Part shown: positions 3,447-55,540 of the stretch, one piece after another
Numbering within the stretch: position 1 is the first letter of the stretch
Layout of the letters: each line of letters opens with the position of its first letter
Assembly: GCA_964543815.1 (NCBI GenBank)
Contig: CAZIZG010000001.1
Coordinates: 116,265 to 180,264, forward strand
DNA length: 64,000 nt
Source: an uncultured Bdellovibrionales bacterium
Lineage (GTDB): Bacteria; Patescibacteriota; Minisyncoccia; Moranbacterales; UBA1568
Direction of reading: 5' to 3'
The notes under the pieces: generated by a model
What the model saw: the letters and a program-made list of their open reading frames with translations, nothing else
Told to the model about the DNA's origin: nothing
Database searches by the model: none
Program-made: the position numbers and the translations under genes

Positions 3447-3483
3447 ATAGTCACACTTCTCTCAAAAGTTCTTAATCATACTT

Positions 3484-3856: not shown

Positions 3857-3872
3857 GAACTTTTAACATTCT

Positions 3873-3901
3873 ATTTTAGCACAAAATTGACACTTTGTCA
3901 A
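3873..3901 (-). promoter_or_regulatory. sigma70-type promoter for rnpB (TTGACA-17-TAAAAT); the -35 lies inside the palindrome CATTGACActtTGTCAATG
   Basis: minus-strand TTGACA (plus 3896-3901), 17-nt spacer, TAAAAT (plus 3873-3878), about 20 nt upstream of P1. Confidence 0.5.
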
Positions 3902-4071
3902 TGACGCACTCTCAGCTCTCATCCTCCCTTATTCTACTCGAAAACCCCACTTTCTGACAGTCTCACTCTTTACAAAAACTACAATCTGTGGGAAGATATA
4001 TTGTCATCTCAGGAATTCATCCGAAATGTTTTCGATGAACACTCCTGTAGACGGCTAGAAGAAGGAGCGAA

Positions 4072-4377
4072 ATGACAGGAGTCATTGAAATGCTGCGTAT
4101 TCGCGTCGAAACCACACCAGAGTTCATCTGCCTTGCGCGGCATGAACATCACGCCGAATTCCTTGGAGCCTTTGTTGGGTTCGAACTCGACGCGGTTCCA
4201 GATCCCGAAAATGAGACGCTCTATCGCGTCTCGGTTGGAGAGGTAGAAAAAGCCCTCCGCCAAAAAACAGGCGGCACCATGGCTGTGGTCTACTGGACGG
4301 GCCACTGGCATCGTACCCAGCACCTGCTGGACGATCCCGTCTACTTCCCCAAGAGTTGCTGCGTCATCGTCACGTAG
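4072..4377 (+). CDS. hypothetical protein (101 aa) in a locally GC-rich islet
   Basis: AAGGAG 7 nt upstream of ATG; followed by terminator 4386-4418; overlapping minus ORF 4009..4323 rejected. Confidence 0.45.
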   Translation: MTGVIEMLRIRVETTPEFICLARHEHHAEFLGAFVGFELDAVPDPENETLYRVSVGEVEKALRQKTGGTMAVVYWTGHWHRTQHLLDDPVYFPKSCCVIVT

Positions 4378-29228: not shown

Positions 29229-31484
29229 TCACTCTGGCGACAACCGAACTCCCGTCTCATTTGGAGCTGTTTCGGAAGATTTGGCTGTATCAATAAGCGC
29301 CCGGATACCGTTTGTATCCACCACCGGACGACGGCGTAATGCTTTAAATTTTTTTGGTTCTATATGTTTGGCCTGAGCCAAAGAAAGTGGGGCGTCTGTC
29401 GAGGCATATGCTTGATGGCGAACATCTCTTCGTTCGGATACACGAGACGGTCGGGCCGTCCTGCTTTGTTCATCTGGACGAGCCACTGGGGAAACTGTTT
29501 GCTTTCGCTCTATTTCATTGCGAGCCTTAGCAGTCGCCCGTTGATAATCCCGCAGACAGTCTTTACAGAAAGTTGGTCGACTTCCATCAGGTTTGAACGG
29601 CACTTCAATTTCCAGTCCACAGGTAGCACATACGGCCTGATAGAGTATTTTCTCTGGTACTAATGCTTCAGCATGGACCGCCTCCGTCTGCGCCTCCGCG
29701 TCAGACAAAACGGGTTCATGCTGTGATACTTCAAGAGCTTGATTCTTTTTTTCACCCTGCTCAAAGGCATCCAAATCTACCAACGACGCCTTCTTTGGTG
29801 CCAGCGGTGGTTCAAAAGCCGGCTTGGCAGCTGATGACACCACGCCTTTAAGCAAAATAGCCGCCTCATCCGCTGTGTAGATCTCAGGATTGGAGCCAGA
29901 GGGATCGGGGGTTACCGTATCTTTTGGTGCGGGAGTTGGTAAAGTGATTTTCGGAATCGCCGCATACTTCTGGGCCGAGGGCATCATTTTCTTTGGTGGC
30001 TGTGATGGTTGTGCTGAAACAACTGGAGCCGAGAGTGGCTTCTGAGCTGCTCTCCCCTCGCCAAACTGAGCGGTTGGTTGCGGCATCTTCGGTCGGGGTT
30101 GAGACTGGGATGGCACCCCCAAAGGACGCGACGTTTCTTTGGGTCGCACGGAGGCAACTGGTGGTGCGACTGTTTTCACCAAAGCTTGGCGCTCTTCGGC
30201 TGAGAGCATACCACTCCATCGCATAATTTTTTCTTCCACTTCTTCTTTTTTCGATGTATAGCGCTCCCGGGAAGAATTGATAATTTTTTCTTCATTTCCA
30301 GCATCTTCCAACTTGATAGGTGGCAAAGTTGTAGCTGAAAAGGCATCACCAGCAATACCATCAATCATGAGCTTGAGATAAATCTGGTACTTCGGCAAAT
30401 TGACGATATCATTCATCATGAATACCGGCTCAAACTCCTTTTCCAAAAACTCGGCGTCCATAGCCCCTACCCGGAACGAAACGATGCTACCAGCGTTTCC
30501 AAAAATAGCGTCACGCACCTTTTCATCAATCTGGGTCACGTACTGATTGGCCAGGATGAGGTTCAGGTGGTACTTACGCGCCTCAGAAAGAATATTAGCA
30601 AACGACTCCGTAGCAAAATTCTGAAACTCATCAACGTAAAGATAAAAATCCGCTCGAGTATCTTCTGGAATGTCTACTCGACCCATGGCAGCAAGTTGGA
30701 TTTTGGTAATCATCATAGCCCCAAGGAGAGCGCTATTGTCCTCACCGAGACGACCCTTGGAAAGGTTCATGATGAGGATCTTACGCTCATCCATAATCTT
30801 GCGCACATCAAAGGACGAGACGGTCTGACCCACAATATTTCTGATGAGAGCACTCGAAAGGAACTGCCCTACCTTGTTCTGAATCGGAGAAATAACCTCT
30901 TGAAGCACCCGAGGATCCCACTTGGAAAATTCGTCCACCCAAAAGGAACGAACCACTGGATCAGTGATTTTTTCTACTACCCGCTCCCGATAAGATTTAT
31001 CAACCAGGATACGAGTGACACCGAGAAGTGTGCTTCCCGGATATTCAAGCAGACCCAAAATAGCATTACGCAAAATATACTCCAGTCGCGGTCCCCAGGA
31101 ATCAGCCCAGATTTTTTTGAACACTCCCACCAAACCAGAGGCCACCAAGTGACGGTACTCCGGACTGACTTTTTCCATCACATTGAAAGCAATCGGGAAG
31201 TCTTGGTCAGCCGGATTAAAATAGATAACGTCATTAATACGATTTGACGGGATGGCCTTGATGAGTTTTTCAGCCGTATCACCGTGCGGATCAATAAAGG
31301 CGATACCATGACCCTTTTGGATATCCTGAATAGCCAGGTTTTCCAAAAGATTGGTCTTACCCATACCGGTTTTTCCAATCACATACATGTGTCGGCGACG
31401 ATCATCTTGCTTGATACCAAACACACGTTCCTGATTACGGAAGTTCGTCTTGGCAAAAAATGTGACGTCATTCTGTAAAGCCAT
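29229..31484 (-). CDS. TraG/TraD/VirD4-family (type IV coupling-protein-like) ATPase lacking TM anchor, with C-terminal CxxC...CxxC zinc ribbon
   Basis: Walker A VIGKTGMGKT at residues 34-43, Walker B FYLYVDEFQNF, then ARKYHLNLILANQYVTQI (VirD4/TrwB-like); Pro/Ala/Ser-rich linker; CATCGLEIEVPFKPDGSRPTFCKDC. Confidence 0.7.
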   Translation of the reverse strand: MALQNDVTFFAKTNFRNQERVFGIKQDDRRRHMYVIGKTGMGKTNLLENLAIQDIQKGHGIAFIDPHGDTAEKLIKAIPSNRINDVIYFNPADQDFPIAFNVMEKVSPEYRHLVASGLVGVFKKIWADSWGPRLEYILRNAILGLLEYPGSTLLGVTRILVDKSYRERVVEKITDPVVRSFWVDEFSKWDPRVLQEVISPIQNKVGQFLSSALIRNIVGQTVSSFDVRKIMDERKILIMNLSKGRLGEDNSALLGAMMITKIQLAAMGRVDIPEDTRADFYLYVDEFQNFATESFANILSEARKYHLNLILANQYVTQIDEKVRDAIFGNAGSIVSFRVGAMDAEFLEKEFEPVFMMNDIVNLPKYQIYLKLMIDGIAGDAFSATTLPPIKLEDAGNEEKIINSSRERYTSKKEEVEEKIMRWSGMLSAEERQALVKTVAPPVASVRPKETSRPLGVPSQSQPRPKMPQPTAQFGEGRAAQKPLSAPVVSAQPSQPPKKMMPSAQKYAAIPKITLPTPAPKDTVTPDPSGSNPEIYTADEAAILLKGVVSSAAKPAFEPPLAPKKASLVDLDAFEQGEKKNQALEVSQHEPVLSDAEAQTEAVHAEALVPEKILYQAVCATCGLEIEVPFKPDGSRPTFCKDCLRDYQRATAKARNEIERKQTVSPVARPDEQSRTARPSRVSERRDVRHQAYASTDAPLSLAQAKHIEPKKFKALRRRPVVDTNGIRALIDTAKSSETAPNETGVRLSPE

Positions 31485-37481: not shown

Positions 37482-37553
37482 TGGGGAGTAGCCAAGCGGT
37501 AAGGCAGGGGCCTTTGAAGCCTCCATGCGATGGTTCGATCCCATCCTCCCCAG
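37482..37553 (+). tRNA. tRNA-Gln (anticodon TTG); CCA not encoded
   Basis: TGGGGAG-TA-GCC-AAGCGGTAA-GGC-A-GGGGC-CTTTGAA-GCCTC-CATGC-GATGG-TTCGATC-CCATC-CTCCCCA-G; cloverleaf near-identical in plan to E. coli tRNA-Gln. Confidence 0.85.
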
Positions 37554-37559
37554 CAAATT

Positions 37560-41614: not shown

Positions 41615-42856
41615 CTATTTAAAAACGATAGAATTGCCAGCGACATACCCGGTGGTCCAGCAGAGCTGGAGACTATAGCCCCCGGATGGACGGTCAATAT
41701 TCAAAACATCACCAACAAAGTGCAGATTGGAAAACTTCCGCGAACGCATATGTTTCCAATCTACTTCTTCCAGGGCTACCCCACCCGAAGTAACAATAGC
41801 TTTATCAGCTCCGAGAAGCCCATCAACCGTCAAGCGGAAATCTTTTGTTTTCCTCGCCAAAGACAAGCGCTCATCACGGGTCACACTGTGTACTGGAGTA
41901 TCTGGATTGATACCAGAGAGACCAAGGAGTGTCGGGATAAGGAGTGGCGTGAGAAATCCATCCAAGCCATTCTTCGCCTGTTTGTTCTTATTCGCTTCAA
42001 AACACGTTTGAATATCATGATCAATTTCGCCAATATTTTTCTCAGGAAAAAAATCTATTGAAACGGGGACGGTACCGTACTGGAGGAACTCAGCGATACT
42101 GCGACTCATATTGAGTACGAGCGGACCTGAGAGTCCCACATGAGTAAATAAAAGTTTGCCCCGTTTGCTTTCTATCTTGCGGCCCTGCTGAAAGTAACTC
42201 AGTTTTACGTCCGGAAAACTCGCTCCAGAAAGCGCATGAGCCCAAGTCTCACGCACGGTGAGTGGCACCAGCGCCGGTCGTGGGGCCACAATCGTATGAC
42301 CAATCTTTTCAAGCCACCGAAAGCCATCCCCTGTTGACCCTGTCTCTGGCCGCGACTGACCACCCGTGGCAAGGATATATGAATGCGCTCGCATGATGCT
42401 CCCATTTTTCATCCGTACCCCACTTATATTGCTCCCTACCACCTCTAGACCCGCCACTTCCATCCCGGTAAGAATCGTCACATTTCCCTCTCGCATATAC
42501 GAAACTAGAGCATCCCAAACTGACTGGGCATTATCAGAAACGGGAAACACTCGCTTCTCCGCCTCTACTTTGGTCGGCATGCCCCTCATATGAAAAAAGT
42601 CGAGAGTGGACTGCACCCCAAACTGAGCCAGAGGTGAATAGAGAAACTTGGCAGCCGTTCCAAACTTTTGAAGAAACAGGTGCTCATCAAATTCAGCATT
42701 CGTGATGTTCGAACGCCCACCACCCGTGATGAGGAGCTTCTGGCCCAAAGACGTGTTTTTCTCCAAGAGCACCACTCGGGCGCCACACTCAGCCGCTCGG
42801 CCAGCCGCCATCATCCCGGCCGGCCCTCCTCCGATAACAATAACATCGTAGTCCAT
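41615..42856 (-). CDS. FAD-dependent flavoprotein, HI0933/BaiN (aminoacetone-oxidase-like) family
   Basis: MDYDVIVIGGGPAGMMAAGRAAECGARVVLLEKN...GGGRSNITN; 413 aa. Confidence 0.8.
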   Translation of the reverse strand: MDYDVIVIGGGPAGMMAAGRAAECGARVVLLEKNTSLGQKLLITGGGRSNITNAEFDEHLFLQKFGTAAKFLYSPLAQFGVQSTLDFFHMRGMPTKVEAEKRVFPVSDNAQSVWDALVSYMREGNVTILTGMEVAGLEVVGSNISGVRMKNGSIMRAHSYILATGGQSRPETGSTGDGFRWLEKIGHTIVAPRPALVPLTVRETWAHALSGASFPDVKLSYFQQGRKIESKRGKLLFTHVGLSGPLVLNMSRSIAEFLQYGTVPVSIDFFPEKNIGEIDHDIQTCFEANKNKQAKNGLDGFLTPLLIPTLLGLSGINPDTPVHSVTRDERLSLARKTKDFRLTVDGLLGADKAIVTSGGVALEEVDWKHMRSRKFSNLHFVGDVLNIDRPSGGYSLQLCWTTGYVAGNSIVFK

Positions 42857-42967
42857 ACTCTCATTGTACCAAGAAAAAGCATCATCACTCAGTTTTTGGT
42901 ATCTGTCAACAAAATTCCTTTTAAAAAACCGAAAAAAACACTATAATACGGGCATAATTCATCGCTT

Positions 42968-43531
42968 TTGACTATGACGATCCAACAATACTCGCTCGTT
43001 CTTTCGGTTCTCGTCCTACTCCTTGGATCAGCCACCCTGCTTTCTATCATCTTATTTTTTTCTTCCGCGGCCTGGCGAGAAAAGATACAAACTGTTGCCT
43101 ATGACACCTGGATGAAACTCATTGGCATTTTCGCTACTATCGCGACACTGGGTGCCCTCACCTATCAGTTTATCTATCTCACTCCTGTTTGCCTCGATTG
43201 TTGGTGGCAACGCATCTTCATGTTTCCGATAGAAATCATCGTTCTTGTCTCGCTTCTCACCAAGAACAGACAGAACCACTTCCTCACCTGGTTTATGGCG
43301 AGCATCGGCATCCTCTTTTCTCTTCATCACTACTCCGAGCACTTCGAACGCTATGTCATGGGAAATGCCACACTTGTTCCCTGCTCCCCCACCCCCAGCG
43401 AACCACTCTGCGGACTTGCACCAACTGTTACCTTTGGTTTCATCACTATCCCATTCATGGCCGTCATCGTCTTTGCTGCTCTCATCTGGCTCTCCTATCT
43501 TGCTTTTCATAAGTCTCGTCAACCCAAATAA
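42968..43531 (+). CDS. DsbB/BdbC-like thiol-disulfide oxidoreductase membrane protein (candidate)
   Basis: 4 TM; CLDCWW (CxxC) in first extracytoplasmic loop and a second Cys pair PCSPTPSEPLC. Confidence 0.5.
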   Translation: MTMTIQQYSLVLSVLVLLLGSATLLSIILFFSSAAWREKIQTVAYDTWMKLIGIFATIATLGALTYQFIYLTPVCLDCWWQRIFMFPIEIIVLVSLLTKNRQNHFLTWFMASIGILFSLHHYSEHFERYVMGNATLVPCSPTPSEPLCGLAPTVTFGFITIPFMAVIVFAALIWLSYLAFHKSRQPK

Positions 43532-43536
43532 GCGCT

Positions 43537-43854
43537 ATGCTTACCTTTAGTGAACGCGTCGTAAAAATCGCTCTCTCCATTCCCGAAGGAAGAGTCACTA
43601 CCTATGGCCGCATCGCAAGAGCAGCCGGCGGTGGCCCCATGGCCTCACAAAGTATTACGGCGATACTCGGAAAGGCCTGGGAACAAGGTGAAAAAAATAT
43701 TCCTTTTCACCGCATCGTGTATGCGGACGGGCACATCTGGGTAGACGAAAAACATCGGACAACTCGGCTCAAACTCTACAAAAAGGAGGGTATCGAACTC
43801 GACCAAAAAAACCGTATCCAGAACTTTCGTTCCATCCTTTGGGAATTAACATAA
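43537..43854 (+). CDS. MGMT-fold DNA-binding protein lacking the catalytic Cys (alkyltransferase-like, ATL)
   Basis: IPFHRIVYADG where O6-alkylguanine transferases have PCHRVV. Confidence 0.65.
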   Translation: MLTFSERVVKIALSIPEGRVTTYGRIARAAGGGPMASQSITAILGKAWEQGEKNIPFHRIVYADGHIWVDEKHRTTRLKLYKKEGIELDQKNRIQNFRSILWELT

Positions 43855-43859
43855 AAAAT

Positions 43860-44669
43860 ATGCACAAGCCATCGAGTTTTCGTGATTATCTCATCGCTAC
43901 CCTCATCGCTACAACCCTCTTTGTTTTTTTTGGGTTCTACCTCTTTATCCGCCACGGCTTTCTCTGGAGCACTCCCACCACCACAGATGCCCTTTTTCTC
44001 CCCAATAAAGCCTTGGCTTCTGTCGCCATGACACTGCTCGCTTTTACCTTTCTCATTGGTCCCATCGTACGTTATTTTGACCGCTATGATACCTGGCTCT
44101 CCTACCGCAAAGAAATTGGTATCCTCGCCGGATTTCTCGCCATCGTTCATGGACTTATTAGCTACTGTCTCCTGCCAATCAAATTTCCCCAAGCCTGGAT
44201 TGACTTTACTGCTACGGAATTTCTTGCCGGACTTGTCGGTGCCATTACTCTCGCCGTCCTCTTCATTCTCTCCTGGAAAAGCATCATTCTCCTCGTTACT
44301 GGTGGCCCCTGGTGGTTCCTTCAACGTTTTGGTCTCCGGCTTGCTATTATCGCCACCCTCATCCATGTCTACGTGATGAAGTGGTCAAGTTGGACGACTT
44401 GGTTTACTCAGGGCAACACCCAGCCAACAGCTGAGCTTATTCGTCCAGAACTCCCAGCACTCGAACTCCTTGTCACTCTCTTTATCACTTGGGTAGTTGT
44501 GATTCGATTCTACGAAACAATTTTTCTATTTCGAGACTGCGGTTTCAAAGCCAAAGAAATCTGCATGGACCTCCAGATTAAGGCGCGAGGGCGACACTTT
44601 TTTATATGGAGTTTTTTGGTTTATCTTGTCCTTACCCTCATTATTCTTGTCCGCTATCTCATCCCCTGA
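43860..44669 (+). CDS. ferric-reductase-like transmembrane domain protein (MsrQ/YedZ-like heme-binding core)
   Basis: 6 TM with His pairs in helices (IVHGLISY, LIHVYVMKW). Confidence 0.45.
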   Translation: MHKPSSFRDYLIATLIATTLFVFFGFYLFIRHGFLWSTPTTTDALFLPNKALASVAMTLLAFTFLIGPIVRYFDRYDTWLSYRKEIGILAGFLAIVHGLISYCLLPIKFPQAWIDFTATEFLAGLVGAITLAVLFILSWKSIILLVTGGPWWFLQRFGLRLAIIATLIHVYVMKWSSWTTWFTQGNTQPTAELIRPELPALELLVTLFITWVVVIRFYETIFLFRDCGFKAKEICMDLQIKARGRHFFIWSFLVYLVLTLIILVRYLIP

Positions 44670-45304: not shown

Positions 45305-45311
45305 ACTTAAA

Positions 45312-45338
45312 ACACCCTTCTCGCGAGGGTGTTTTGTT
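45312..45338. terminator. bidirectional terminator ACACCCT-tctcgcg-AGGGTGT
   Basis: flanked by A-run and T-run between convergent genes. Confidence 0.6.
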
Positions 45339-45356: not shown

Positions 45357-46940
45357 TTAGAGATCGTTTCCGGTGTAGGAAAGATTGAAGCTCTTGTTGA
45401 TAAGTGGAAAATCAGGCACCATGTCCCGCCCAATAACATACGGGAAAAGCTGCCAGTTCAAAAACGAGGGGTCGCGCACTTTGACACGAGAAATAGTTCC
45501 TGTGGCGTCAGTCATCACGAAGTAAGTAATATCTCCACGCCATCCCTCGACCGTTCCTACCGCATGACGATTGGCTAGCAAGGCTGGCATAGCAATACGG
45601 CACTCACTTGTTTCATGAATGAGGAGCGCCAGCACCTGATTGAGCAAGCGAAATGACTGAGTCACCTCACGTGCTCGTACCCGAAAGCGAGCATAGACAT
45701 CACCAGACTTCTCAGTCATCACCCCGAACTGAACCATATCATAGGCCGCATATGGGAAATCCGCCCGAGTATCAATTTCCAGTCCACAGGCCCGAGCAGC
45801 AATACCGACCGCGCCATGATCAGCCGCAACGGCCGAATCGAGAGTCCCTGTCCCTTTAAGACGGTTAAGCATCGAATCACTTTCTTTCGTTACTGCTACA
45901 ACCTCCATATAGTCCTTCTCTAGAAGTTCCAAATCATCATGTAGTTCTTTGACAAGAGCCGTTTCAATATCACGGGTCACACCCCCATAAGCAACGACGC
46001 CACGCAAAAATCGGCTGCCCGTCAAGCGTTCGTTCCATTGCATGACGCGTTCACGAAGCCGGGATCCGTGGCTGCCGCCAAAGGAAAATCCGGTATCCAG
46101 CATAATAAATGCTAAGTCATTGAAATGATTAGCGAGCCGCTCCAACTCACCATAAACTACCCGAAGCAGTTTAGCACGCGTTGGCACCGAAACATCAGCC
46201 ATATCTTCAACCGCCTGAGCAAAAGCCAAAGCATGATGATACGAACTGTCCCCCGAAATACGCTCTGCAAGGGTCAGTTTCTTATCCAAAGCCAAGTGCT
46301 CAAAAAGTTTTTCAGTCCCCTTGTGTACATAACCCAAACGAGGCTCGAGACGCAAAATTTCCTCACCCAAAACACTAAATCGAAAGTGGCCCGGTTCAAT
46401 GATACCGGCATGGACTGGTCCTACTGGAATTTCATAGACGCCTTCACCTTCGTACTTCTGAAATGTCGGATACGCTTTATGCTCTGGTGGTGTCACCACA
46501 GCGTTCCAAGCAAATTCCTTGCGAAGCGGATAAGTATTATCAGGATAATTTTCTTGGTGGAGATTGATACGGTTGGCCTGTGGATGACCAGCTGGAGTCA
46601 AACCGAAGAAAGTCTTGATTTCTTGTTCGTACACCGCAAACTCATGATCAATTGGGGTTAGCGAAGGGAAAGTCTCACTTCCACCCAAAGAAAGAAAAGG
46701 GATAAGAAAAATATTATCTTTCGGTACACCAAAAACATAATATACCCGAAAGGCACCCTGTTCGGCACGCTCATCGGTCGCCGTAACGGTTTTGAGTGGC
46801 AAAGCATGATCATGTTTCAGTGATATCACTAACGATTTCAAATCATGCTCGGATACTTGAAAAAGAAAGCTTCGTCCCTCTTGTTTCAGCTGATAGTTCT
46901 CAAGTCCGAACCGAGTAATCAGGGTATTCTGATCAGTCAT
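45357..46940 (-). CDS. fused NuoC-NuoD / HycE-like large subunit with all four NiFe-ligand cysteines substituted (Ehr-type)
   Basis: GPVHAGIIEPGHFRF, LGYVHKGTEKL (NuoD/HycE blocks); L1 position reads ERISGDSSYHH (RxCGxCxxxH expected); L2 position reads DPSFLN (DPCxxC expected). Confidence 0.75.
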   Translation of the reverse strand: MTDQNTLITRFGLENYQLKQEGRSFLFQVSEHDLKSLVISLKHDHALPLKTVTATDERAEQGAFRVYYVFGVPKDNIFLIPFLSLGGSETFPSLTPIDHEFAVYEQEIKTFFGLTPAGHPQANRINLHQENYPDNTYPLRKEFAWNAVVTPPEHKAYPTFQKYEGEGVYEIPVGPVHAGIIEPGHFRFSVLGEEILRLEPRLGYVHKGTEKLFEHLALDKKLTLAERISGDSSYHHALAFAQAVEDMADVSVPTRAKLLRVVYGELERLANHFNDLAFIMLDTGFSFGGSHGSRLRERVMQWNERLTGSRFLRGVVAYGGVTRDIETALVKELHDDLELLEKDYMEVVAVTKESDSMLNRLKGTGTLDSAVAADHGAVGIAARACGLEIDTRADFPYAAYDMVQFGVMTEKSGDVYARFRVRAREVTQSFRLLNQVLALLIHETSECRIAMPALLANRHAVGTVEGWRGDITYFVMTDATGTISRVKVRDPSFLNWQLFPYVIGRDMVPDFPLINKSFNLSYTGNDL

Positions 46941-46949
46941 AAGCGTACG

Positions 46950-48425
46950 TTAGTGGAGTTGAATCATTGAGAGGCTTGCCGCTGCCTGTTGAATAAGCAT
47001 AGAGAGAGTCTCGGGAACATACCAGCTCAGTACCACAAGGAGAGCTAGCAAAAAAATGAGTGGTACTTGGGTCAACTGGTTGGATTCACCTGATGTTATC
47101 CCTTCCGGCACCTTACCATACAGCATAGTCATCAAATGCTTCAGAAACCCAAAGAACACGATGCCGAGTGCCAAAATCACTACCGCTACCACATACGGGT
47201 AATGCTCCATGCCCGCCGACAAAAGCAAAAGCTCCGTCGTAAACATTCCGAATGGTGGCAATCCAAGAAGAGCAATAAAGGCCACAAAAAAAAGTGGGCC
47301 AGTAACTGGTAGCGTTCGCATCATACCACTGATATGACGCATCTTGGTCGAGCTGTATTTGAGAAAAATATTACCCGCAACAAAGAAAATAAGAGCCTTG
47401 CCAAGAGCATGGTAGAACATATGGAGCAGCGCCGCAAATGTCCCCACACCACCGAAGCCAAAACCAAGTACCAAGAGTCCTGCATGTTCAATACTCGAAT
47501 AAGCCAATAATCGTTTATAGTTTTTCTGAATGAAAATAATGAGCGCAGCGAAAACAATCGAAAGTACTCCAAAGAACAAAAAGAGTTCCGCAGTAAAAGA
47601 AGATTGTAGTGCCGTATCCGTAAGCGCCTTAAAACGAAGTACCGCTACAATCGCCACATTAAGCAGCACACTAGAAAGAAGTGCCGCAATAGGAGTTGGG
47701 GCCTTGGAGTAAGTATCCGGCTTCCAGGTATGCATCGGGACGAGTCCAACCTTGGTGCCATAGCCCACCAAAACAAAGATAAATGCAATCTTGACAATGA
47801 GTGGCTCCATTGAAGTAGCGCTGTCACGAAGCAATTCCCAGGTAATAGACCCTTCTCTCATTTGTGGCAGAGCCAGAAAAAGGAGTGTTCCGAGAAGCGA
47901 CAGAAGTAACCCCAAGGAATTAATAATGAGATACTTCCAAGCAGCTTCCGTAGCAGACTGTTTGTTGTAAAAACTAATGAGAAAAGCAGTCGAAAGTGTG
48001 GTTGCCTCGATAGCAATCCACATCACCACCGGACTCATAGTAGCCACGGCCAGAAACATGGCGAAAAAGAATAATTTGAGTAACAGAAAATATTGGCGCA
48101 CACGACTCGGTCCAATAATCCTCTTCTCTACTTCTGCTCGCAAATACCCAATTGAATACAGACTAGCAAAGAGACCCACCAAAGCAATAATGAAAGAAAC
48201 ATACACTCCAAGCGCATCAAGAGAAAAGAGCTGAGAGGCCTCTACTGCGCCACGATCCACAACTCCGGGGATAAGCGCCAATACAAGGCCAAGCTCAATG
48301 ATACTCGATAAGAGCACTGTCTTTTCGATAAGACGCGTGTGTTTCGATTGAAGGAGCGCAATGAAAAATGCGGCAAGAAACGGAACAGCAATGAGATAAG
48401 TAAGCAGCATAAAATTATTCTTCAA
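46950..48425 (-). CDS. NuoN/HyfF/MrpD-like proton-translocating antiporter subunit
   Basis: 491 aa, about 14 TM, Mrp-antiporter fold motifs. Confidence 0.75.
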   Translation of the reverse strand: MKNNFMLLTYLIAVPFLAAFFIALLQSKHTRLIEKTVLLSSIIELGLVLALIPGVVDRGAVEASQLFSLDALGVYVSFIIALVGLFASLYSIGYLRAEVEKRIIGPSRVRQYFLLLKLFFFAMFLAVATMSPVVMWIAIEATTLSTAFLISFYNKQSATEAAWKYLIINSLGLLLSLLGTLLFLALPQMREGSITWELLRDSATSMEPLIVKIAFIFVLVGYGTKVGLVPMHTWKPDTYSKAPTPIAALLSSVLLNVAIVAVLRFKALTDTALQSSFTAELFLFFGVLSIVFAALIIFIQKNYKRLLAYSSIEHAGLLVLGFGFGGVGTFAALLHMFYHALGKALIFFVAGNIFLKYSSTKMRHISGMMRTLPVTGPLFFVAFIALLGLPPFGMFTTELLLLSAGMEHYPYVVAVVILALGIVFFGFLKHLMTMLYGKVPEGITSGESNQLTQVPLIFLLALLVVLSWYVPETLSMLIQQAAASLSMIQLH

Positions 48426-49074
48426 TGAGACGTTTCATCTTATCAACGTTGAGCGATCCAAACTGACGGTAAATCATTGAGATAAAGATTTGAGCAATAA
48501 TCATCCAGATCACGATATCAAAAATAATGCCCATCTCGAGAGCGGCTGGTTGCCTGATACCAATAAAGGAACCTAAAAGCAATATACTATTCTCGAGAGA
48601 AAGAATTCCTATCACTTGTGAAAACGCCCCTCGTCGATTAATCAGAATGAATATAGAAACAAGAATGATAGCCAAATTGAGTGGCAACACGCCGAACGCC
48701 TCAGGAACCAAAATACCGAGAGGTAAAAATACTTGCGAGTATGAAAAGAGTACCAGTCCCATCAGGACGACGAGCGTCATTGGCGTCGAAAGATAGTTAT
48801 TAGCCGTAAAACGTGTGCCATATCGCCGAATGAGTCGGCTAAAGAAAATAGGTGCCACCCCGGCCTTAATAAAGAGAGTCAGTGCGGCAACCAATACCAA
48901 TCCACGATCTCCTTCCGAAAGACCAATCCAAAAGAGAAACGAAGTCACTACAAGTGACTGGACAAAATACAGCCGGATAAGACTGCGATGGGTCTTGACC
49001 AGATGCATGGCCATGGTAGCAAGAAAAGCAATCAAATCGAGAGAGAAGTACAATTCGTGAGAGTGTTCAATCAT
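48415..49074 (-). CDS. HyfE-like / NuoK-like small membrane subunit
   Basis: 219 aa, 6-7 TM; C-terminal LENSILLLG NuoK-like helix. Confidence 0.55.
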   Translation of the reverse strand: MIEHSHELYFSLDLIAFLATMAMHLVKTHRSLIRLYFVQSLVVTSFLFWIGLSEGDRGLVLVAALTLFIKAGVAPIFFSRLIRRYGTRFTANNYLSTPMTLVVLMGLVLFSYSQVFLPLGILVPEAFGVLPLNLAIILVSIFILINRRGAFSQVIGILSLENSILLLGSFIGIRQPAALEMGIIFDIVIWMIIAQIFISMIYRQFGSLNVDKMKRLIEE

Positions 49075-49084
49075 AACAATCGCA

Positions 49085-50050
49085 TTAAAAGGTAATCGTC
49101 ACTGAGAGAGCGATGACGGAAAGAACAAAGGAGGTAAACAGCAAGTCTGGAACGCGAAAAATACGGAACTTGGCCATGGTTGACTCAATAAAGGCAACAC
49201 TGAAAAGAAGTAGTAACGCCTTCACGGTAAACCACAGCCCAGATGTAAGGAGGAGAGAAGGAAGGAGTGATGTGGCAATACCCCACGGGAAAAACACGTT
49301 TGCCCCCAGAGCAACAAAGATAAGTAGTTTGCTCCAACTCGCCCACTCGATAAGCGCTAAGCGTTTACCGGAGTACTCCAGTATCATGGCTTCATGAATC
49401 ATGGTCAGCTCCAGATGTGTAGCGGGATTATCGACCGGGAAACGGCCGTTTTCTGCTAAGAGAGCAATAAAGAAAGCAAGGAAGGCAATCACGAGTGGGA
49501 GATAGGACTGAAATGGTAAAGACCCCAGACTTTCTGCCATCGTCATCACATTTCCCGTCTGGGCAATAACAGAAGCCACTAAAAGTGAAAAGAAAAGACC
49601 CCCTTCAGCTAAAGCAGCCATTGTCATTTCACGACTTGAGCCAAAACCACCAAACCCACTTCCGATATCCATCCCGGCCAACGCCAGGAAGAATGTCCCG
49701 AGCGCAAAAAGATAAATAAGTGTAATAAAATCACCGCTCGCCAAAAACGACAACGCGTACGGTGTACCCTCAAAGAGAGAAGGTGCAACGGTTGAAAATA
49801 CCGGGACACTCGCCCCAATGAGCAAGGTCACGGCAAAAATGAGAAAAGGAGCAAACCGGAAGACCCAAGAAGCATCCTCAGAAATGACTTCGTCTTTATG
49901 AAATAACTTCCACAAATCACGGTATGGCTGAAACACACTCGCTCCCTCTCGATTCTGCATACGAGCCTTAATCTTGCGAATAATCCCTACCGAAAGTGGC
50001 GAAAGCGCCGGGATGAGTAGGAGTTGGAAAATAAAAATGAGAATATCCAT
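49085..50050 (-). CDS. NuoH/HycD-like membrane subunit
   Basis: 321 aa; 8 TM; N-terminus LSPLSVGIIRKIKARMQNREGASVFQPYRDLWKLF matches NuoH/HycD. Confidence 0.75.
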   Translation of the reverse strand: MDILIFIFQLLLIPALSPLSVGIIRKIKARMQNREGASVFQPYRDLWKLFHKDEVISEDASWVFRFAPFLIFAVTLLIGASVPVFSTVAPSLFEGTPYALSFLASGDFITLIYLFALGTFFLALAGMDIGSGFGGFGSSREMTMAALAEGGLFFSLLVASVIAQTGNVMTMAESLGSLPFQSYLPLVIAFLAFFIALLAENGRFPVDNPATHLELTMIHEAMILEYSGKRLALIEWASWSKLLIFVALGANVFFPWGIATSLLPSLLLTSGLWFTVKALLLLFSVAFIESTMAKFRIFRVPDLLFTSFVLSVIALSVTITF

Positions 50051-50060
50051 ACGTAAAAAA

Positions 50061-52121
50061 TTATGAGCGGGTCGTCCAATACAATAACACTACGAGTGTT
50101 ACAAACACGTAAAGAATATAGGCGTTGACATTGCCACCATGAATCCGTCGCATCTTAGAAGCAGCAAAATGGAGCACAGTATGGAGCGGACCATAAATCA
50201 TTTGATGATATGGGTCAGCAAGAGATGTCTTTACTTCTTGTGACTTGATGAAGTACCGCATATTTTCATCATGATACTCGACCTCTGTCTGCTTGGTTGG
50301 CCGAAGAATACCCCGAAAAATAGTCACGAGTGCCCGTGAAAAACTCGTGGCGGTTATTTCTGTTCTTGACGTAAGGGGTGTCCCGCAATCCCACGTTCGG
50401 CTTAGGGTAACGGTGCGCTTACGAGTAAACCAAACAACGAGACCACTTACAAAAGCGAAGACCAAAACGAGAGCAATGGCGACGGCATCAAGTGGTAAAA
50501 CATTGGCAAACTGTTCACGAGCAGCAACAAATTGAGCAAAAGGAAATTCGTAGGTCGCCTGATTTATCAAACCTATACTCGCTATGATGGCCACGAGCGA
50601 GGCAATCACTATTCCCGAGAACAAACCTAAAACAAGAGTGAGAAGAGCCAGCAAGCTCATACTCGCTATCATTGTGGCACCGCTTTCAGACACCACGCGC
50701 GGCTCAGCCTGTCGGGAACGAGCCAAAAAGGTGGTTCCGAAAGCCTTTACAAAACAAGCAGCCGCTAGTCCCCCGGTAAATGCCAGGCTAGCAATCGCAA
50801 AAATAAACACTGCCTTAACAGCAACACTGGTTGAGCCAATACCAACAAAAAGCGCCTGAAAAGTAAGCCACTCACTCGCAAAACCATTAAAAGGCGGGAA
50901 GGCAGAGATAGCAAGCGATCCAATAAGAAATAGAAAGGCAGTGTACGGCATAAAACGAATCAGTCCTCCATAGGCCTCCATATTTCGTGTGCCCGTACTC
51001 GCTACTACCGATCCAGCACCTAAAAACAAAAGGGCCTTAAAAATGGCGTGGTTCATGGTGTGATAGAGTGCTGCCGCCAGCGCAAAGAGAGCAAACGTTT
51101 CCAATCCAAGAGCAAAGAACGTAATCCCTGCACCAAAACCAAGAAGGATAATCCCAATATTTTCGATACTATGGTACGCTAATAATCGCTTAATATCATG
51201 CTCCGAAAGAGCATAGAGCACACCCAAAAGAGAAGAAAGGCTACCCAAAATCAGGAAGACGAGACCCCACTCAAGAGTTGCGCCTGGAAAAAAATCAAAG
51301 AAAAAACGAATGAACATGTAGATGGCTGTCTTGATCATTACACCAGAGAGCAGGGCCGATACATGCGTCGGAGCCGCAGAATGAGCGCCTGGTAGCCAAA
51401 TATGCACTGGGATGATACCCGCTTTAATACCAAACCCAAGCAACGCCGCTAAAAGAATGAGGTTGTGCATGAGCGGAGCAATCGTTCCTGCTACGGACCG
51501 CCAGTCATCAAAGTCAAAGGACCCTGTCACCCGATAGGCAAGAAAAAATGAAAGCGCTATCGCCAGAGTCCCAAAATGAGTCATGAGGAAATACAAGAAT
51601 CCAGCCCTGATACTCTCTTGTTTTTTATACTCATAGATAACCAAGAAATACGAGGCAAGAGACATGCACTCCCAAACCAGAAGAAAGAACAAGGCTTGAT
51701 TAGCCATAGTCACAAGCATCATGCTCGCGATGAAGGTATTGTAGAAAAAACCAAAGGTACCCAAATTATACTTACCATAAAAATGCTTCTGATAAGAGAA
51801 GCCATAGAGCGCTGAGGCAGCAGCGATGAGTGATACTAGACCGAGAAAAAATGCCGAAAGGCCATCCAACCGAAAGGAAAAATCAAATATACCTGGCAAT
51901 ACCCCCGGAAAGGAAAAAGCTATCCCCTGGCCAGCAATCAACACCTGAGCCGAAAGGACCAGTCCGAAGAGAGAGCCAATAAGCGCCACGCCGTGTGAGA
52001 AATACCCTGCTGTCTTGCCCTGATCAGCTACCGCCCGAGACAGCAAAAGCGCCCCTAAAGCACCCACAGAAAAAATGGAAAGCAACGCCATGATACTCGT
52101 AGATGCAAAAAGAGAATCCAT
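50061..52121 (-). CDS. NuoL/HyfB/MrpA-like large antiporter subunit
   Basis: 686 aa, about 16 TM plus C-terminal extension. Confidence 0.75.
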   Translation of the reverse strand: MDSLFASTSIMALLSIFSVGALGALLLSRAVADQGKTAGYFSHGVALIGSLFGLVLSAQVLIAGQGIAFSFPGVLPGIFDFSFRLDGLSAFFLGLVSLIAAASALYGFSYQKHFYGKYNLGTFGFFYNTFIASMMLVTMANQALFFLLVWECMSLASYFLVIYEYKKQESIRAGFLYFLMTHFGTLAIALSFFLAYRVTGSFDFDDWRSVAGTIAPLMHNLILLAALLGFGIKAGIIPVHIWLPGAHSAAPTHVSALLSGVMIKTAIYMFIRFFFDFFPGATLEWGLVFLILGSLSSLLGVLYALSEHDIKRLLAYHSIENIGIILLGFGAGITFFALGLETFALFALAAALYHTMNHAIFKALLFLGAGSVVASTGTRNMEAYGGLIRFMPYTAFLFLIGSLAISAFPPFNGFASEWLTFQALFVGIGSTSVAVKAVFIFAIASLAFTGGLAAACFVKAFGTTFLARSRQAEPRVVSESGATMIASMSLLALLTLVLGLFSGIVIASLVAIIASIGLINQATYEFPFAQFVAAREQFANVLPLDAVAIALVLVFAFVSGLVVWFTRKRTVTLSRTWDCGTPLTSRTEITATSFSRALVTIFRGILRPTKQTEVEYHDENMRYFIKSQEVKTSLADPYHQMIYGPLHTVLHFAASKMRRIHGGNVNAYILYVFVTLVVLLYWTTRS

Positions 52122-52124
52122 AGA

Positions 52125-52664
52125 TTAGGAATTAACGGAAGTATTTTCAACTTCAATATCCTCAAAAATTTGAAGCAGTGCCGCTAATACGGCTTTGGGT
52201 GATGGTGGATCACCAGGAATTTTGAAGTCTACAGGAATAACGTCTTCGACACTATTGTGAATACCATACGAATCACGATAAATCCCTCCATCGATAGCCC
52301 CATCCCCAACCGCCACTACAAAACGCGGGGTTGGCATCGCTTCATACGTGTGACGAAGTCCCTGTGCCATATTCCGAGAAACAGGACCCGTGACAAAGAG
52401 CATATCCGCATGACGTGGCGAGGCAACAAAGTGGATACCAAAGCGTTCTACATCATAATAAACATTCCCAAGAGCAGTTAACTCTTGTTCTTCGGCATTG
52501 CTTGATCCGGCCGCTACCTCACGAATAGCCAGTGATCCCTTAAAAAGCTTTTTGACCGATGCTTCAATTTTTTCTCCCAAAACCTCAGCGCTAAGATTCA
52601 GTAGCTCTGAGTGTGGCACCACTAATTTTGGCGTGGCGGCAATTTTACGTAACAGTCGGTACAT
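52125..52664 (-). CDS. NuoB/HycG-like small subunit with all four Fe-S (N2-type) cysteine ligands replaced
   Basis: ASPRHADMLFVTGP (NuoB SPRQADxMxVAG block); expected CC, C in GSCAxxGG and C in PGCPP read SS, GDGAIDGG and PGDPP. Confidence 0.7.
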   Translation of the reverse strand: MYRLLRKIAATPKLVVPHSELLNLSAEVLGEKIEASVKKLFKGSLAIREVAAGSSNAEEQELTALGNVYYDVERFGIHFVASPRHADMLFVTGPVSRNMAQGLRHTYEAMPTPRFVVAVGDGAIDGGIYRDSYGIHNSVEDVIPVDFKIPGDPPSPKAVLAALLQIFEDIEVENTSVNS

Positions 52665-52775
52665 ACAAACGGCATGGTCACTTCGTGACCAGAATTACAG
52701 AAAAACACAGCCGAAACCCTCTTTTCGGAAACACTCCCATTCTACTCTTTTCGAACTTTTTGTCCAGTCCTAGCC

Positions 52776-53393
52776 CTAAAGCGATTTTTTTTCGTACGTT
52801 TCACGGAGAAACCCAATAATCGCTGGGGCAAAAGAAATAATCACGATAACAAGGATAATAGGAAGGAGGTATCGGTCTACATCAATGACACTCCCGAGCG
52901 AATATCCCATCAGCACCAAACCAAGAGTCCATGCGAGCGATCCAATAAGGTTATAGATAAAAAACGTTCGATAACGCATATTGGCTACCCCGGCCACGAT
53001 AGGAGCGAAGGTACGGACAATGGGCATAAAACGAGCCAAGACAATCGTTTTGGGTCCGTGTTTGTCGTAAAAAGCCTGTGCTTTCAAAACGTGGGCTTTT
53101 TTAAAAATGAGCGAATCCTCACGGCTGAAAATTTTTGGACCAACCCTTCTTCCAAATTCATATCCAAAAGCATTTCCCAGTACCCCGGCCAGAAAGATAC
53201 CCCCGAGCAGCAATGGGAGAGAAAACAGGTTTTGGGAAGCCAAAAAACCTGCCACGAACAGAAGACTGTCTCCTGGGAAAAAAAACCCGAGAAAAAGCCC
53301 AGTCTCAGCAAAAACAATAGCAAATACCCCAATATACCCGATAGTTTCAATGAGCGAAACCAAATTTACACCAAAAAATTCCATATATATCAA
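52776..53393 (-). CDS. DedA/VTT-domain membrane protein
   Basis: ETGLFLGFFFPGDSLLFVAGFLAS ... LARFMPIVRTFAPIVAGV. Confidence 0.8.
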   Translation of the reverse strand: MIYMEFFGVNLVSLIETIGYIGVFAIVFAETGLFLGFFFPGDSLLFVAGFLASQNLFSLPLLLGGIFLAGVLGNAFGYEFGRRVGPKIFSREDSLIFKKAHVLKAQAFYDKHGPKTIVLARFMPIVRTFAPIVAGVANMRYRTFFIYNLIGSLAWTLGLVLMGYSLGSVIDVDRYLLPIILVIVIISFAPAIIGFLRETYEKKSL

Positions 53394-53449: not shown

Positions 53450-55540
53450 CTAACGTGAGAAGTCCGCGTCAAGAAGTATGGCCAGCTTACTCGGTAGCAT
53501 ATTTTTCCGAGTAAGCTCTCTTAGACCTTCTCCAAAGGCCTTGCGAAGACTCTCATTTCCAAAATCAATGTCTAATGACTCTACGATTGCCCCTGATTCT
53601 TGAACCAGCTGTACTTTACGAGCAGCAGCATCATCATGGAATATCTGATAATCCGCCATTACTTTTTCCAAAAGAACATCATACGCCGGTGAATCAAAGG
53701 ATGGATGAGCTTTTAATTTAGCAAACTCCTTCAAGACTTTACGGGTAATAATTTCCTGCGCCCGATAATAGCGATATCGGTCTCTCAAAATATCATCAGG
53801 CGCCTGACTGAGGCTCAAAAGTCGGCGCATGCCACGTGCGATTTGCTCAAACCAGTCAGGCTGAAAATCTTCATCAAGCGATTGAATCTGCGCTACACCC
53901 CCCTCTACTCGCTCAAGCTGCACATCGAGCTTGGTAAGTATACGCTTGTAGACCGACTCACTTACTTCACGGTACTGAAATAACAGTCCGAGGAAGTGTT
54001 TCTCAATGCCAAGGGCATACACTCGAAGCGCCTCCTCAAAATCATTCGGTGATTGATCAATAAGCCGTTCACACTCCGCTCGTTCCTTTTGCTGTCGATC
54101 CCGAATAGCTTCGGAGAGCTGATTATACGTTTGATCATTCATGTAGTTCTTATCGAAAAAATCATCCACTTTGGTTTGTCCGTAAGAAACAATATACGAT
54201 CGTGCCTGCCGATAACCAGCCTCCTCTACCGGCGATAAAGCATCTAATCGAAACCTACGAATCATCGTTCCAATCGTCAACGCCTTAACGAAAAGAGTGA
54301 AATAGATACAACCAATAGTAAGAGCGGTTATGAACTCTTTGAGACTAAATGCAAATTGCCAATGAGGCAGTGTCAAATCATCAGGAATAAGAAGCACCAT
54401 CACAACTGCCAAAGCCCCCCGCAGGCTCCCCCAAGAGAGTAGGTGTTGCCAAGTTAAAGGGATGGTAGCCTCCTTCTTACCTACGTTGAGCCACCAAGCA
54501 ATTGGATAGATAGACACCGCACGAGCGAGAGCTACCACCATCACGGTCAAAATAATTGGGACAATAAAATCCTTCAATTCAATTGGAAGGCTCGCAAAAA
54601 GAAAACCCATGGTGATAAAAACAAGTGAATTCACCAAAAATGCAAAGTACCCCCAAAAACTTTCCATGAAATGATGGCTCGAAAGCGAAAGCTTGGAACG
54701 GCCATAATTTCCGATGACCATGGCCGCCATAACAGTGGCAATAATGGAAGAAAAATGAATCTCCTGACCGAAAAGAACCAAGTGATGAGAAATAACTTCT
54801 GATAAAATGAAGGTCAGGTGTGCCACAAGCATGGTCAGAGTAATTTCAATATGTTCGTTATCATCAACCCGCTCGATAATCTTGGCAAAAAGAAAACCCA
54901 TAAGGATACCGAAGGCTACGCCTCCAAATACCATGGTGACGAACATAAAAATACCTTCGATAATCGTCCCTACGCCGGTAAACCCATGAAGAATCACCTC
55001 CAGAACCACCAGAAAAGCAGCGAGTGATGTTCCGTCATTAAAGAGACTCTCTCCCTCAAACAGAAACGCTAGGCGTCGTGGCACACCAAATTCCTTGAAA
55101 AGCGCCAGAACGGCTACTGGGTCCGTGGCTGAAATGAGGGCTCCAAAAAGAAGCGTCCCGAGAAATGGCACTTCCATCCCGATAACTTTCAATACAAAGA
55201 AAAGTACAGCCGCAATAAAAAACATTGAAACAACGAGACTCCCCACAGAAAACCATGAGACAGCCCGAATATTGGTCATCAAGTCGCGAACCCGCATATT
55301 ATACGCCGACTCAAAAATAAGAACGGGTAAAAACAGATAAAACAACAGGTCGGGCGTCAATCGAAAGGCCTGAAGAAATGAAAAAAATGAGAGCTGTGTC
55401 AGTGGCACAAGAAGCGATCCTACCAATACCAAAAGCACCGTATACGGCATACGAATGCGACGAGAAATAAAATAAGTACCCAGTGAAATAAGCATGAGCA
55501 CAAAAAACGACAGTACCATTTCGAGCGACATAGTATGCAT
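53450..55540 (-). CDS. cation:proton antiporter, CPA1 (NhaP-type) with large cytoplasmic C-terminal domain
   Basis: LFEGESLFNDGTSLAAFLVV, 12-13 TM, about 270-aa soluble tail. Confidence 0.8.
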   Translation of the reverse strand: MHTMSLEMVLSFFVLMLISLGTYFISRRIRMPYTVLLVLVGSLLVPLTQLSFFSFLQAFRLTPDLLFYLFLPVLIFESAYNMRVRDLMTNIRAVSWFSVGSLVVSMFFIAAVLFFVLKVIGMEVPFLGTLLFGALISATDPVAVLALFKEFGVPRRLAFLFEGESLFNDGTSLAAFLVVLEVILHGFTGVGTIIEGIFMFVTMVFGGVAFGILMGFLFAKIIERVDDNEHIEITLTMLVAHLTFILSEVISHHLVLFGQEIHFSSIIATVMAAMVIGNYGRSKLSLSSHHFMESFWGYFAFLVNSLVFITMGFLFASLPIELKDFIVPIILTVMVVALARAVSIYPIAWWLNVGKKEATIPLTWQHLLSWGSLRGALAVVMVLLIPDDLTLPHWQFAFSLKEFITALTIGCIYFTLFVKALTIGTMIRRFRLDALSPVEEAGYRQARSYIVSYGQTKVDDFFDKNYMNDQTYNQLSEAIRDRQQKERAECERLIDQSPNDFEEALRVYALGIEKHFLGLLFQYREVSESVYKRILTKLDVQLERVEGGVAQIQSLDEDFQPDWFEQIARGMRRLLSLSQAPDDILRDRYRYYRAQEIITRKVLKEFAKLKAHPSFDSPAYDVLLEKVMADYQIFHDDAAARKVQLVQESGAIVESLDIDFGNESLRKAFGEGLRELTRKNMLPSKLAILLDADFSR

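Follow-up and report, generated by a model that had tools for sequence, protein, structure and literature searches.

We analysed a 64-kb stretch of contig CAZIZG010000001.1, called the window below, to which all searches at the locus for partner, maturation and RNA genes were confined. On its minus strand, from 52664 to 45357, lie six co-directional open reading frames (ORFs) for a complex of the energy-converting-hydrogenase-related (Ehr) family (Table 1). The ORFs and their Pfam and NCBIfam matches agreed with the original prediction, made from the letters of the window, of a six-gene complex-I/group-4-hydrogenase-like module at this place. The two soluble subunits (a NuoB/HyfI-like small subunit and a fused NuoC-NuoD/HycE-like large subunit) had no hydrophobic segments. 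The remaining four were polytopic membrane proteins, and the two antiporter-type subunits among them were matched by Proton_antipo_M (2e-58 and 2e-50). Intergenic gaps within the cluster were 10 nucleotides (nt) or less and leave no space for additional genes. The HyfF-like gene, read here from a TTG start as 491 amino acids (aa), is 486 aa long in public gene calls, which presumably start at an in-frame ATG five codons downstream, near 48410. In both soluble subunits the cysteines that ligate redox cofactors in related complexes were all substituted.

Redox ligands of the soluble subunits

The large subunit contained neither of the motifs that hold the metal centre of group 4 [NiFe]-hydrogenases, L1 (RxCGxCxxxH) and L2 (DPCxxC). 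We aligned it column by column and over its full length with HycE and NuoD, and the small subunit likewise with HycG and NuoB; every Cys ligand was substituted. 'RVCGICGFAHS' of E. coli HycE/HyfG paired with 'RISGDSSYHHA', so that C241 is replaced by S229 and C244 by S232. HycE 'LDPCYSC' paired with 'FNLSYTG', which replaces C531 by S521 and C534 by G524. Thus, the original prediction was right about the loss of the [NiFe] ligands but had taken 'DPSFLN' for the DPCxxC position. That segment pairs with HycE 'RAATYANW' and NuoD 'RTPSFAHL', about 30 residues upstream of 'FNLSYTG', and on these alignments the conclusion of ligand loss is unchanged. The protein stops 3 residues past the L2 position, where a mature, protease-trimmed hydrogenase ends, and hence has no tail for protease cleavage. 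The complex I quinone-site residues H38 and Y87 (Thermus Nqo4 numbering) were also replaced, by Ile181 and Gly230.

The residues around the former [NiFe] site were strongly conserved. Across 59 diverse Ehr proteins, G230, D231, E182, H236, S521, Y522, G524 and D526 were invariant or nearly so. Relative to Ehr complexes that bear the Fe-S cluster, the pocket motifs showed no fixed change; the sole fixed difference that was flagged lay elsewhere (N359 versus D). Among the best 120 large-subunit homologues, 'SGD' and 'F/L-N/D-L-S-Y-S/T-G-N-D-L' were essentially fixed. The most conserved segments of the family were the beta1-beta2 loop of the large subunit, 'VGPVHAGIIEPGHFRF', and the C-terminal 'VPDFPLINKSFNLSYxGNDL'.

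The small subunit contained no cysteine at all, so that all its 4Fe-4S ligands are substituted, as had been predicted. Alignment to NuoB, HycG, HyfI and other Ehr proteins placed S55, E58, G122 and D152 at the four ligand positions. In the best 120 small-subunit homologues, cysteine was absent from 105, 'GS(S/N)NAEEQE' was present in all 120 and 'PGDPP' in 119; E58 and D152 were essentially invariant in the clade. Outside the clade, the four ligand cysteines were retained in 56/56 sampled Ehr small subunits, within 'VDAGSCNGCE', 'G-A/D-C' and 'PGCPP'. Beyond the four ligand positions and a change of D51 to A, the small subunit hardly differed from those of FeS-bearing Ehr. Of the small subunits longer than 230 aa, 15 of 38 had an N-terminal extension with one or two ferredoxin-type motifs (the 38 include five from true-hydrogenase loci and two E. 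coli references), and a separate ferredoxin-like gene was found in only two of the sampled Ehr loci.

On the sequences sampled, the loss of all redox ligands, those of the proximal [4Fe-4S] cluster included, is a derived character of this clade that does not extend to Ehr generally, and ordinary Ehr complexes are probably still redox proteins with a proximal cluster. The prediction of a cofactor-less complex thus holds for this clade but fails as a property of the whole family. Judged by its ligand positions, the complex can form no cysteine-ligated metal centre. Because no cysteine ligand is left, it cannot carry electrons as its relatives do. In a literature search that did not cover the founding Ehr papers (Coppi 2005, Marreiros 2013), we found no report of small-subunit cluster loss in this clade.

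Two small subunits, from loci L010 and L017, kept one of the four cluster cysteines ('SN(S/A)CEQE') and already had 'PGDPP'; by their sequences they may be intermediates in cluster loss. L010 carries the label Deltaproteobacteria; NrfD and 4Fe-4S dicluster genes lie upstream there, on the other strand.

Structure prediction gave models of both soluble subunits that matched solved folds of relatives. The best PDB match of the large subunit in a phmmer search was HycE (7z0s_E, 3e-61), and its AlphaFold2 monomer (pTM 0.88) had the same chain as best Foldseek match (TM 0.88). The only low-confidence parts of this model were residues 160-206 and 508-527 (the beta1-beta2 loop and the C-terminal segment), as would be expected of mobile or interface elements. 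For the small subunit, the mean pLDDT was 80.8, and the solved fold with the lowest root-mean-square deviation (2.6 Å) was MbhJ (6cfw_J). Both soluble subunits are thus predicted to keep the folds of their relatives.

No redox partner was found in the window. A CxxCxxCxxxC motif was absent from all frames, and tblastn with E. coli HyfA, HyfH, HycB, HycF, NuoI, NuoE, NuoF and NuoG gave no match. The maturation proteins HycI, HypA and HypB of E. coli gave none either. The motif scan and tblastn therefore bear out, for the 64 kb, the predicted absence of NuoE/F/G and NuoI/HycF-type genes nearby; a separate Fe-S- or NiFe-bearing subunit, a possibility that the original prediction had raised, was likewise not encoded there. 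IspH/LytB, a [4Fe-4S] enzyme, is encoded at 17567-18526 on the minus strand. The organism therefore makes Fe-S clusters, and the loss in Ehr does not come from a general lack of Fe-S assembly.

The complex might still be a redox enzyme if electrons passed through a cofactor not bound by cysteine, or through a docking partner encoded elsewhere (a ferredoxin, a flavodoxin or a group-3b hydrogenase module). Redox chemistry was probably the ancestral function, since other Ehr complexes keep the proximal cluster and some have a fused double-ferredoxin domain. However, the small subunit here has S, E, G and D at its ligand positions, and we know of no [4Fe-4S] cluster that lacks cysteine ligands altogether. 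The unchanged pocket of the large subunit would suit such a role, and the inspection of only 64 kb of the genome leaves room for a partner elsewhere, but there is no ferredoxin motif in the window and the complex I quinone ligands are gone. We also counted in favour of this explanation that some Moranbacteria encode group-3b hydrogenases (PMC10811913). On balance, we consider a remaining redox function quite improbable.

Family placement and conservation

A large-subunit search of 1.8 billion representative proteins was performed and the best 150 matches were examined. Among these, 92 full-length sequences lacked all four [NiFe] cysteines, and nearly all of them showed 'R-x-S-G-D...H' and 'FNLSY(S/A)G' in one variant or another. 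Scattered among them were 21 true hydrogenases that had 'RxCGxC' and, with one exception, 'F(E/N)LCY(S/A)C'. The large subunit of the window carries the family motifs 'SGD' and 'FNLSYxGNDL' common to the 92 representatives. In a neighbour-joining tree of 213 sequences, computed without bootstrap, true hydrogenases were basal and the Cys-less forms made up one large group. The clade of the window, marked by PGDPP, was a monophyletic branch inside Ehr, with group-4f-like true hydrogenases as neighbours. The phylogeny called for with the original prediction thus placed the large subunit inside Ehr, and the tree position, the two motifs and the six-gene composition all agreed with the predicted assignment to this family. 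By sequence, the complex is a six-subunit descendant of Hyf/group-4f-type membrane hydrogenases.

We retrieved 80 further metagenome loci with a profile of 59 Ehr large subunits, a sample biased to relatives of the query. The same six subunit types occurred in Ehr clusters in the order L-H-E-F-CD-B or B-L-H-E-F-CD. The four small-subunit cysteines, typical of Ehr as sampled and absent from the complex of the window, are not part of the published definition of the family in so far as it was readable. Two Ehr clusters in tandem were seen in four metagenome contigs from outside the candidate phyla radiation (CPR), L044, L063, L068 and L079. In L044, L068 and L079 the paired large subunits differ in the pocket ('TVAGD...FNLSYCG' versus 'SISGD...FNLSYSG') and the small subunits differ too; in L063 the second cluster is partial, at the contig end, and only one large subunit was seen.

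Ehr complexes have been described as related to group 4 or 4f hydrogenases, lacking CxxC motifs and of unknown function (PMC10284858, PMC6349859, PMC10432482, PMC6728331). They are known from Geobacter sulfurreducens (GSU0739-0745, EhrA-D, L, S) and Mycobacterium tuberculosis (Rv0081-0087) (PMC8691401, PMC7894505, PMC6728331). Jaffe et al. 2020 found that CPR Ehr large subunits are monophyletic, separate from other Ehr and without [NiFe] cysteines, and that they 'likely cannot interact with H2' (PMC7304191). The clade of the window is probably the same as theirs. The alignment in their supplement is restricted to L1 and L2 of the large subunit, and they do not describe small-subunit cluster loss, the subunit set or the retained pump residues. 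The absence of [NiFe] cysteines from CPR Ehr large subunits was thus already known, and the present analysis adds the clade-specific loss of the [4Fe-4S] cluster.

The taxonomy rests on names in public sources, which assign the bacterium and its clade to Moranbacteria/Patescibacteria and call the closest homologues Candidatus Moranbacteria, Moraniibacteriota, Uhrbacteria or 'Patescibacteria group'. Loci L001-L004, L007, L008 and L012 and proteins P0043 and P0351 are labelled 'uncultured Bdellovibrionales' or 'Undibacterium sp.', yet are clearly syntenic with Moranbacteria-labelled genomes. Those labels probably reflect wrong automatic taxonomy or mis-binning.

The membrane subunits retained their pump and channel residues. 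The HyfB-like subunit had the Glu of transmembrane helix (TM) 5, the Lys of TM7, the Lys of TM8 and the Glu of TM12, including a TM7 Lys that has been lost in E. coli HycC. The HyfF-like subunit had TM5 Glu, TM7 Lys and TM12 Glu with an Asn between (E/K/N/E), the same Asn as in E. coli HyfF. TM5 Glu, TM7 Lys and TM12 Lys or Glu, which define MrpA/MrpD-type subunits, were thus present, and the antiporter-like subunits scored far higher with Hyf than with Mrp models. Thirteen charges were kept in the NuoH-like subunit (R37, R46, D63, K66, K70, R148, E157, R209, D213, E220, E228, K274 and R293 in E. coli NuoH numbering). Its TM5-6 loop, 'PVDNPATHLELTMIHEAMILEYSG', is family-invariant and kept in this clade, and an insertion of 3 residues sets it apart from the loop of E. 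coli HyfC, HycD and NuoH. The loop 'PVDNPATHLELTMIHEAM(I/V)LEYSG' was near-invariant across all sampled Ehr and related true hydrogenases, this clade included. Since 'THLELTMIHEAM' is near-invariant in every one of these complexes, it is usable as a lineage signature. The C-terminal half of the HyfE-like subunit is NuoK-like and, in the alignment, keeps the Glu that matches NuoK E36.

The retained residues bear on whether the complex might have a structural or regulatory role without transport, as a scaffold or as a regulator that senses membrane potential or pH and controls other proteins. Such a role would suit a complex for which no energy input can be named and whose peripheral arm is its most conserved part. 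However, buried Lys/Glu pump residues and channel charges are kept in four membrane subunits, which is hard to explain without ion movement, and we regard a role of this kind as distinctly unlikely.

All six genes appear to be maintained. An identical large-subunit protein was found on 16 contigs from several independent samples, and in 12 genome loci at 50-77% identity the six genes occurred in unchanged order. In comparisons with three relatives, nonsynonymous divergence (dN) was 0.10-0.35 and synonymous divergence (dS) was saturated. The dN/dS ratio was about 0.03-0.09 for the five cluster genes for which it was computable; with dS saturated at such divergence, these values are an upper bound only, and for the HyfE-like gene no finite dS was obtained. 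The Cys-free small subunit had the lowest dN in each of the three comparisons. These findings indicate that the cluster is under strong purifying selection.

An ORF-calling or frameshift artefact, or Cys ligands placed elsewhere in the ORFs, was ruled out by the Cys-free small subunit, the full-length alignments and the 16 contigs. That the cluster is the relic of a decaying hydrogenase or Ehr operon, or an assembly artefact, is scarcely credible. Every cofactor ligand is gone, as decay would have it, but the six frames are intact, dN/dS is <0.09 where estimable, the gene order holds down to 50% identity, and the substitutions are fixed in >100 homologues, with the identical protein on 16 independent contigs.

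Gene neighbourhood

Table 1. Genes of the Ehr cluster and adjoining features (coordinates in the window)
Feature	Coordinates	Strand	Length, matches and remarks
Small subunit EhrS, NuoB/HyfI-like	52125..52664	-	179 aa; Pfam Oxidored_q6 8e-24, NCBIfam NuoB
HyfB/NuoL-like antiporter-type subunit	50061..52121	-	686 aa; NCBIfam HyfB NF005086 635 bits, residues 14-682; Pfam Proton_antipo_M
HyfC/HycD/NuoH-like subunit	49085..50050	-	321 aa; Pfam NADHdh 7e-44
HyfE-like membrane subunit	48415..49074	-	219 aa; NCBIfam HyfE 1e-16; Pfam Oxidored_q2 7.5e-4, residues 134-215
HyfF/NuoN-like antiporter-type subunit	46950..48425	-	491 aa from TTG; NCBIfam HyfF 415 bits; Pfam Proton_antipo_M
Large subunit EhrL, fused NuoC-NuoD/HycE-like	45357..46940	-	527 aa; Complex1_30kDa + Complex1_49kDa
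DedA-family membrane protein, upstream neighbour	52776..53393	-	Pfam VTT_dom 5e-19, NCBIfam DedA 3e-48
CPA1 Na+/H+ exchanger, further upstream	53450..55540	-	Pfam Na_H_Exchanger 6e-52; C-terminal extension ~270 aa
Promoter-like site TGGACA, 16 nt, TAGAAT	52739..52766	-	Consensus scan; in 111-nt gap from DedA gene to small-subunit gene
Promoter-like site belonging to CPA1 gene	55592-55565	-	Consensus scan
Hairpin, 12-bp stem	45308..45336		Between large-subunit gene end and convergent HAD hydrolase gene

A CPA1 antiporter and a DedA protein immediately upstream on the same strand had been predicted as well, and were taken to fit an ion-translocation role. Both genes were confirmed by Pfam and NCBIfam matches, but the support that they lend to ion translocation is weak. 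DedA lay upstream of the cluster in 9/12 related loci and CPA1 in 4/12, the closest relatives only, and because the whole neighbourhood is syntenic among close relatives, the two genes are weak evidence of a functional link. It is uncertain whether DedA is part of the system, and unlikely that CPA1 is. As to co-transcription with these genes, the gap between the DedA gene and the small-subunit gene contains a promoter-like site, which may be the cluster's own promoter; however, the consensus scan for promoters and terminators found no more sites in the region than in shuffles. The hairpin beyond the large-subunit gene is likely a two-way terminator that marks the end of the cluster.

At 46000-52000, over the membrane-subunit genes, the AT skew of the plus strand was +0.18 to +0.31 and the GC skew was near zero. 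Such a pattern is in keeping with the T-rich codons that specify hydrophobic residues on the minus strand, and the long plus-strand ORFs there (e.g. 46125-46661) probably only mirror the real genes. A few genes with a possible redox link lie just beyond the downstream end of the cluster, at 41615-44669, and their synteny extends to most of the closer relatives. They encode an HI0933-like flavoprotein (minus strand), a weakly DsbB-like membrane protein with CxxC, a protein with an MGMT-type DNA-binding domain and a 276-aa polytopic membrane protein without a Pfam hit.

An Rfam scan of the window detected only RNase P RNA class A (3484-3850, minus strand, 108.5 bits) and tRNA-Gln (UUG) (37482-37554, plus strand); no RNA family matched near the cluster. 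At 29229-31484 on the minus strand, a 751-aa protein combines type-IV-secretion coupling-protein (TrwB/TraG-D) domains with a treble-clef zinc finger, and the adjoining 434-aa ORF had no Pfam hit.

Candidate functions and known systems

The coupling set retained by the complex comprises the Lys/Glu chain, the NuoH charges, the NuoH TM5-6 loop, the beta1-beta2 loop of the large subunit and a polar 'SGD / E182 / H236 / Y522 / D526' pocket. Taking the sequences together with the analogy to Mrp antiporters, we rank first, with an even chance, the reading that the complex is a redox-independent ion translocator, perhaps Mrp-like, in which the peripheral arm survives as a cap or gate. In the manner of Mrp, protons would be exchanged for another cation, or ion gradients dissipated or interconverted, by the two antiporter-like subunits together with the NuoH/HyfE channel, and the soluble B-CD module would act as the cap or gate at the entrance of the NuoH channel. 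With D51 lost, the invariant carboxylates E58 and D152 beside D121 would give the site roughly the negative charge of the lost cluster, and this E58/D121/D152 site may hold a cation or a proton.

The neighbourhood of a deep-branching Cys-free member of the clade fits a role in the management of ion gradients. In this locus (L020, contig Ga0209541_10011202, 9254-13737), an F-type ATP synthase operon begins ~800 nt past the end of the Ehr large-subunit gene, in the same orientation. Pfam recognized subunits a, b, alpha and gamma, and the operon also contains an intervening ORF.

Several points weigh against redox-independent translocation. The pocket and coupling loops are as invariant as in FeS-bearing Ehr, and a mere cap would not obviously need them; their invariance hints at a specific event at the pocket, the nature of which we cannot name. 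Mrp antiporters require MrpE, MrpF and MrpG, small subunits that this complex lacks. The association with CPA1 and DedA may be plain synteny. The inspection was limited to 64 kb, so a distant partner subunit is possible. PDB searches gave no Ehr chain, and the literature search gave no Ehr structure or transport assay.

A reading that we hold only tentatively is that the complex is an energy converter of the complex I type run without redox chemistry. The carboxylate site (E58, D121 and D152) or the polar pocket would bind an ion, a proton or a ligand, and binding would act on, or respond to, the loop movements and the Lys/Glu chain that quinone reduction sets in motion in complex I.

By analogy, an ion gradient could also power, through the membrane arm, a non-redox reaction or ligand binding in the polar pocket that replaces the [NiFe] site. 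Vectorial CO2 hydration is carried out by DAB (with NuoL-like DabB and carbonic-anhydrase-like DabA) and by the Cup subunits of cyanobacterial NDH-1. In one relative (L011, contig CAZWNC010000006.1 of a metagenome-assembled genome), a 359-aa ORF at 3014-4093 on the minus strand matched CsoSCA_cat (E 3.9e-8, above the Pfam cutoff). It lies next to the small-subunit gene, divergent and 130 nt from the cluster, but such a carbonic-anhydrase-like neighbour was found at this single locus of ~15 in the clade. A pocket that is nearly invariant across 59 Ehr and has no fixed change in the Cys-free clade, together with invariant coupling loops, would be in keeping with gradient-driven chemistry; however, it lacks a typical zinc ligand set and no substrate can be named for it. 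We regard this explanation as rather unlikely.

It is still debated how, in complex I and its hydrogenase relatives, reactions in the peripheral arm are coupled to ion pumping ~100 Å away, and to our knowledge every member of the superfamily that has been studied is triggered by electron transfer. The present clade is a natural dissection of this coupling, in which the redox centres are gone and the coupling loops, channel and pump residues are under strong selection. If ions are transported, a membrane arm with a Q-module scaffold suffices as a secondary transporter, and the complex would offer structural and mutational studies a minimal model with six subunits, no metal and no sensitivity to oxygen. 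If the complex is a redox-free converter, it would amount to a 'redox-free complex I' made by nature, and a non-redox trigger would be able to work the coupling machinery of the superfamily. The question bears on what Ehr complexes do in general, a widespread family found in Mycobacterium tuberculosis, Geobacter, nitrifiers and many other organisms. Bacteria of the CPR lack respiratory chains, and the findings also bear on the management of membrane ion gradients in bacteria of this radiation.

Group 4 [NiFe]-hydrogenases have a [4Fe-4S] small subunit and a 2x[4Fe-4S] subunit of the HycF/EchF/NuoI type, neither of which is present in the window. The closest characterised homologues of every subunit are those of E. 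coli Hyf (HyfA-J) and of the formate hydrogenlyase Hyc (PDB 7Z0S). The order B-C-E-F-G of the E. coli hyf operon is shared with the window, in which the hyfI-like gene has moved to the front. In contrast to Hyf and Hyc, the window lacks HyfA, HyfD, HyfH, HyfJ, the [NiFe] site, the Fe-S cluster and the protease-cleaved tail.

Mrp antiporters differ in having no NuoH-like subunit or peripheral arm and in having MrpB, MrpE, MrpF and MrpG. These four were not found in the cluster, and the rest of the window was searched without dedicated Mrp profiles. The likeness to Mrp, the functional analogue that we prefer, lies in the MrpA/MrpD-type subunits with their Lys/Glu chain and in the NuoK/MrpC-like element, and Mrp needs no redox input. 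Relative to complex I, the window lacks NuoEFG, NuoI, the N2 ligands, the quinone His/Tyr and separate NuoA, NuoJ and NuoK; homology extends to the B, C, D, H, L and N-type subunits, which share their folds and their channel and pump residues with those of complex I.

Ehr complexes elsewhere carry the four small-subunit [4Fe-4S] cysteines (56/56 sampled), and some have a fused 2x[4Fe-4S] domain, whereas this clade has neither. The complex of the window nevertheless resembles the Ehr complexes of G. sulfurreducens (GSU0739-0745) and M. tuberculosis (Rv0081-0087) in the six subunit types, in 'SGD' and 'FNLSYxGNDL', and in the NuoH loop 'THLELTMIHEAM'.

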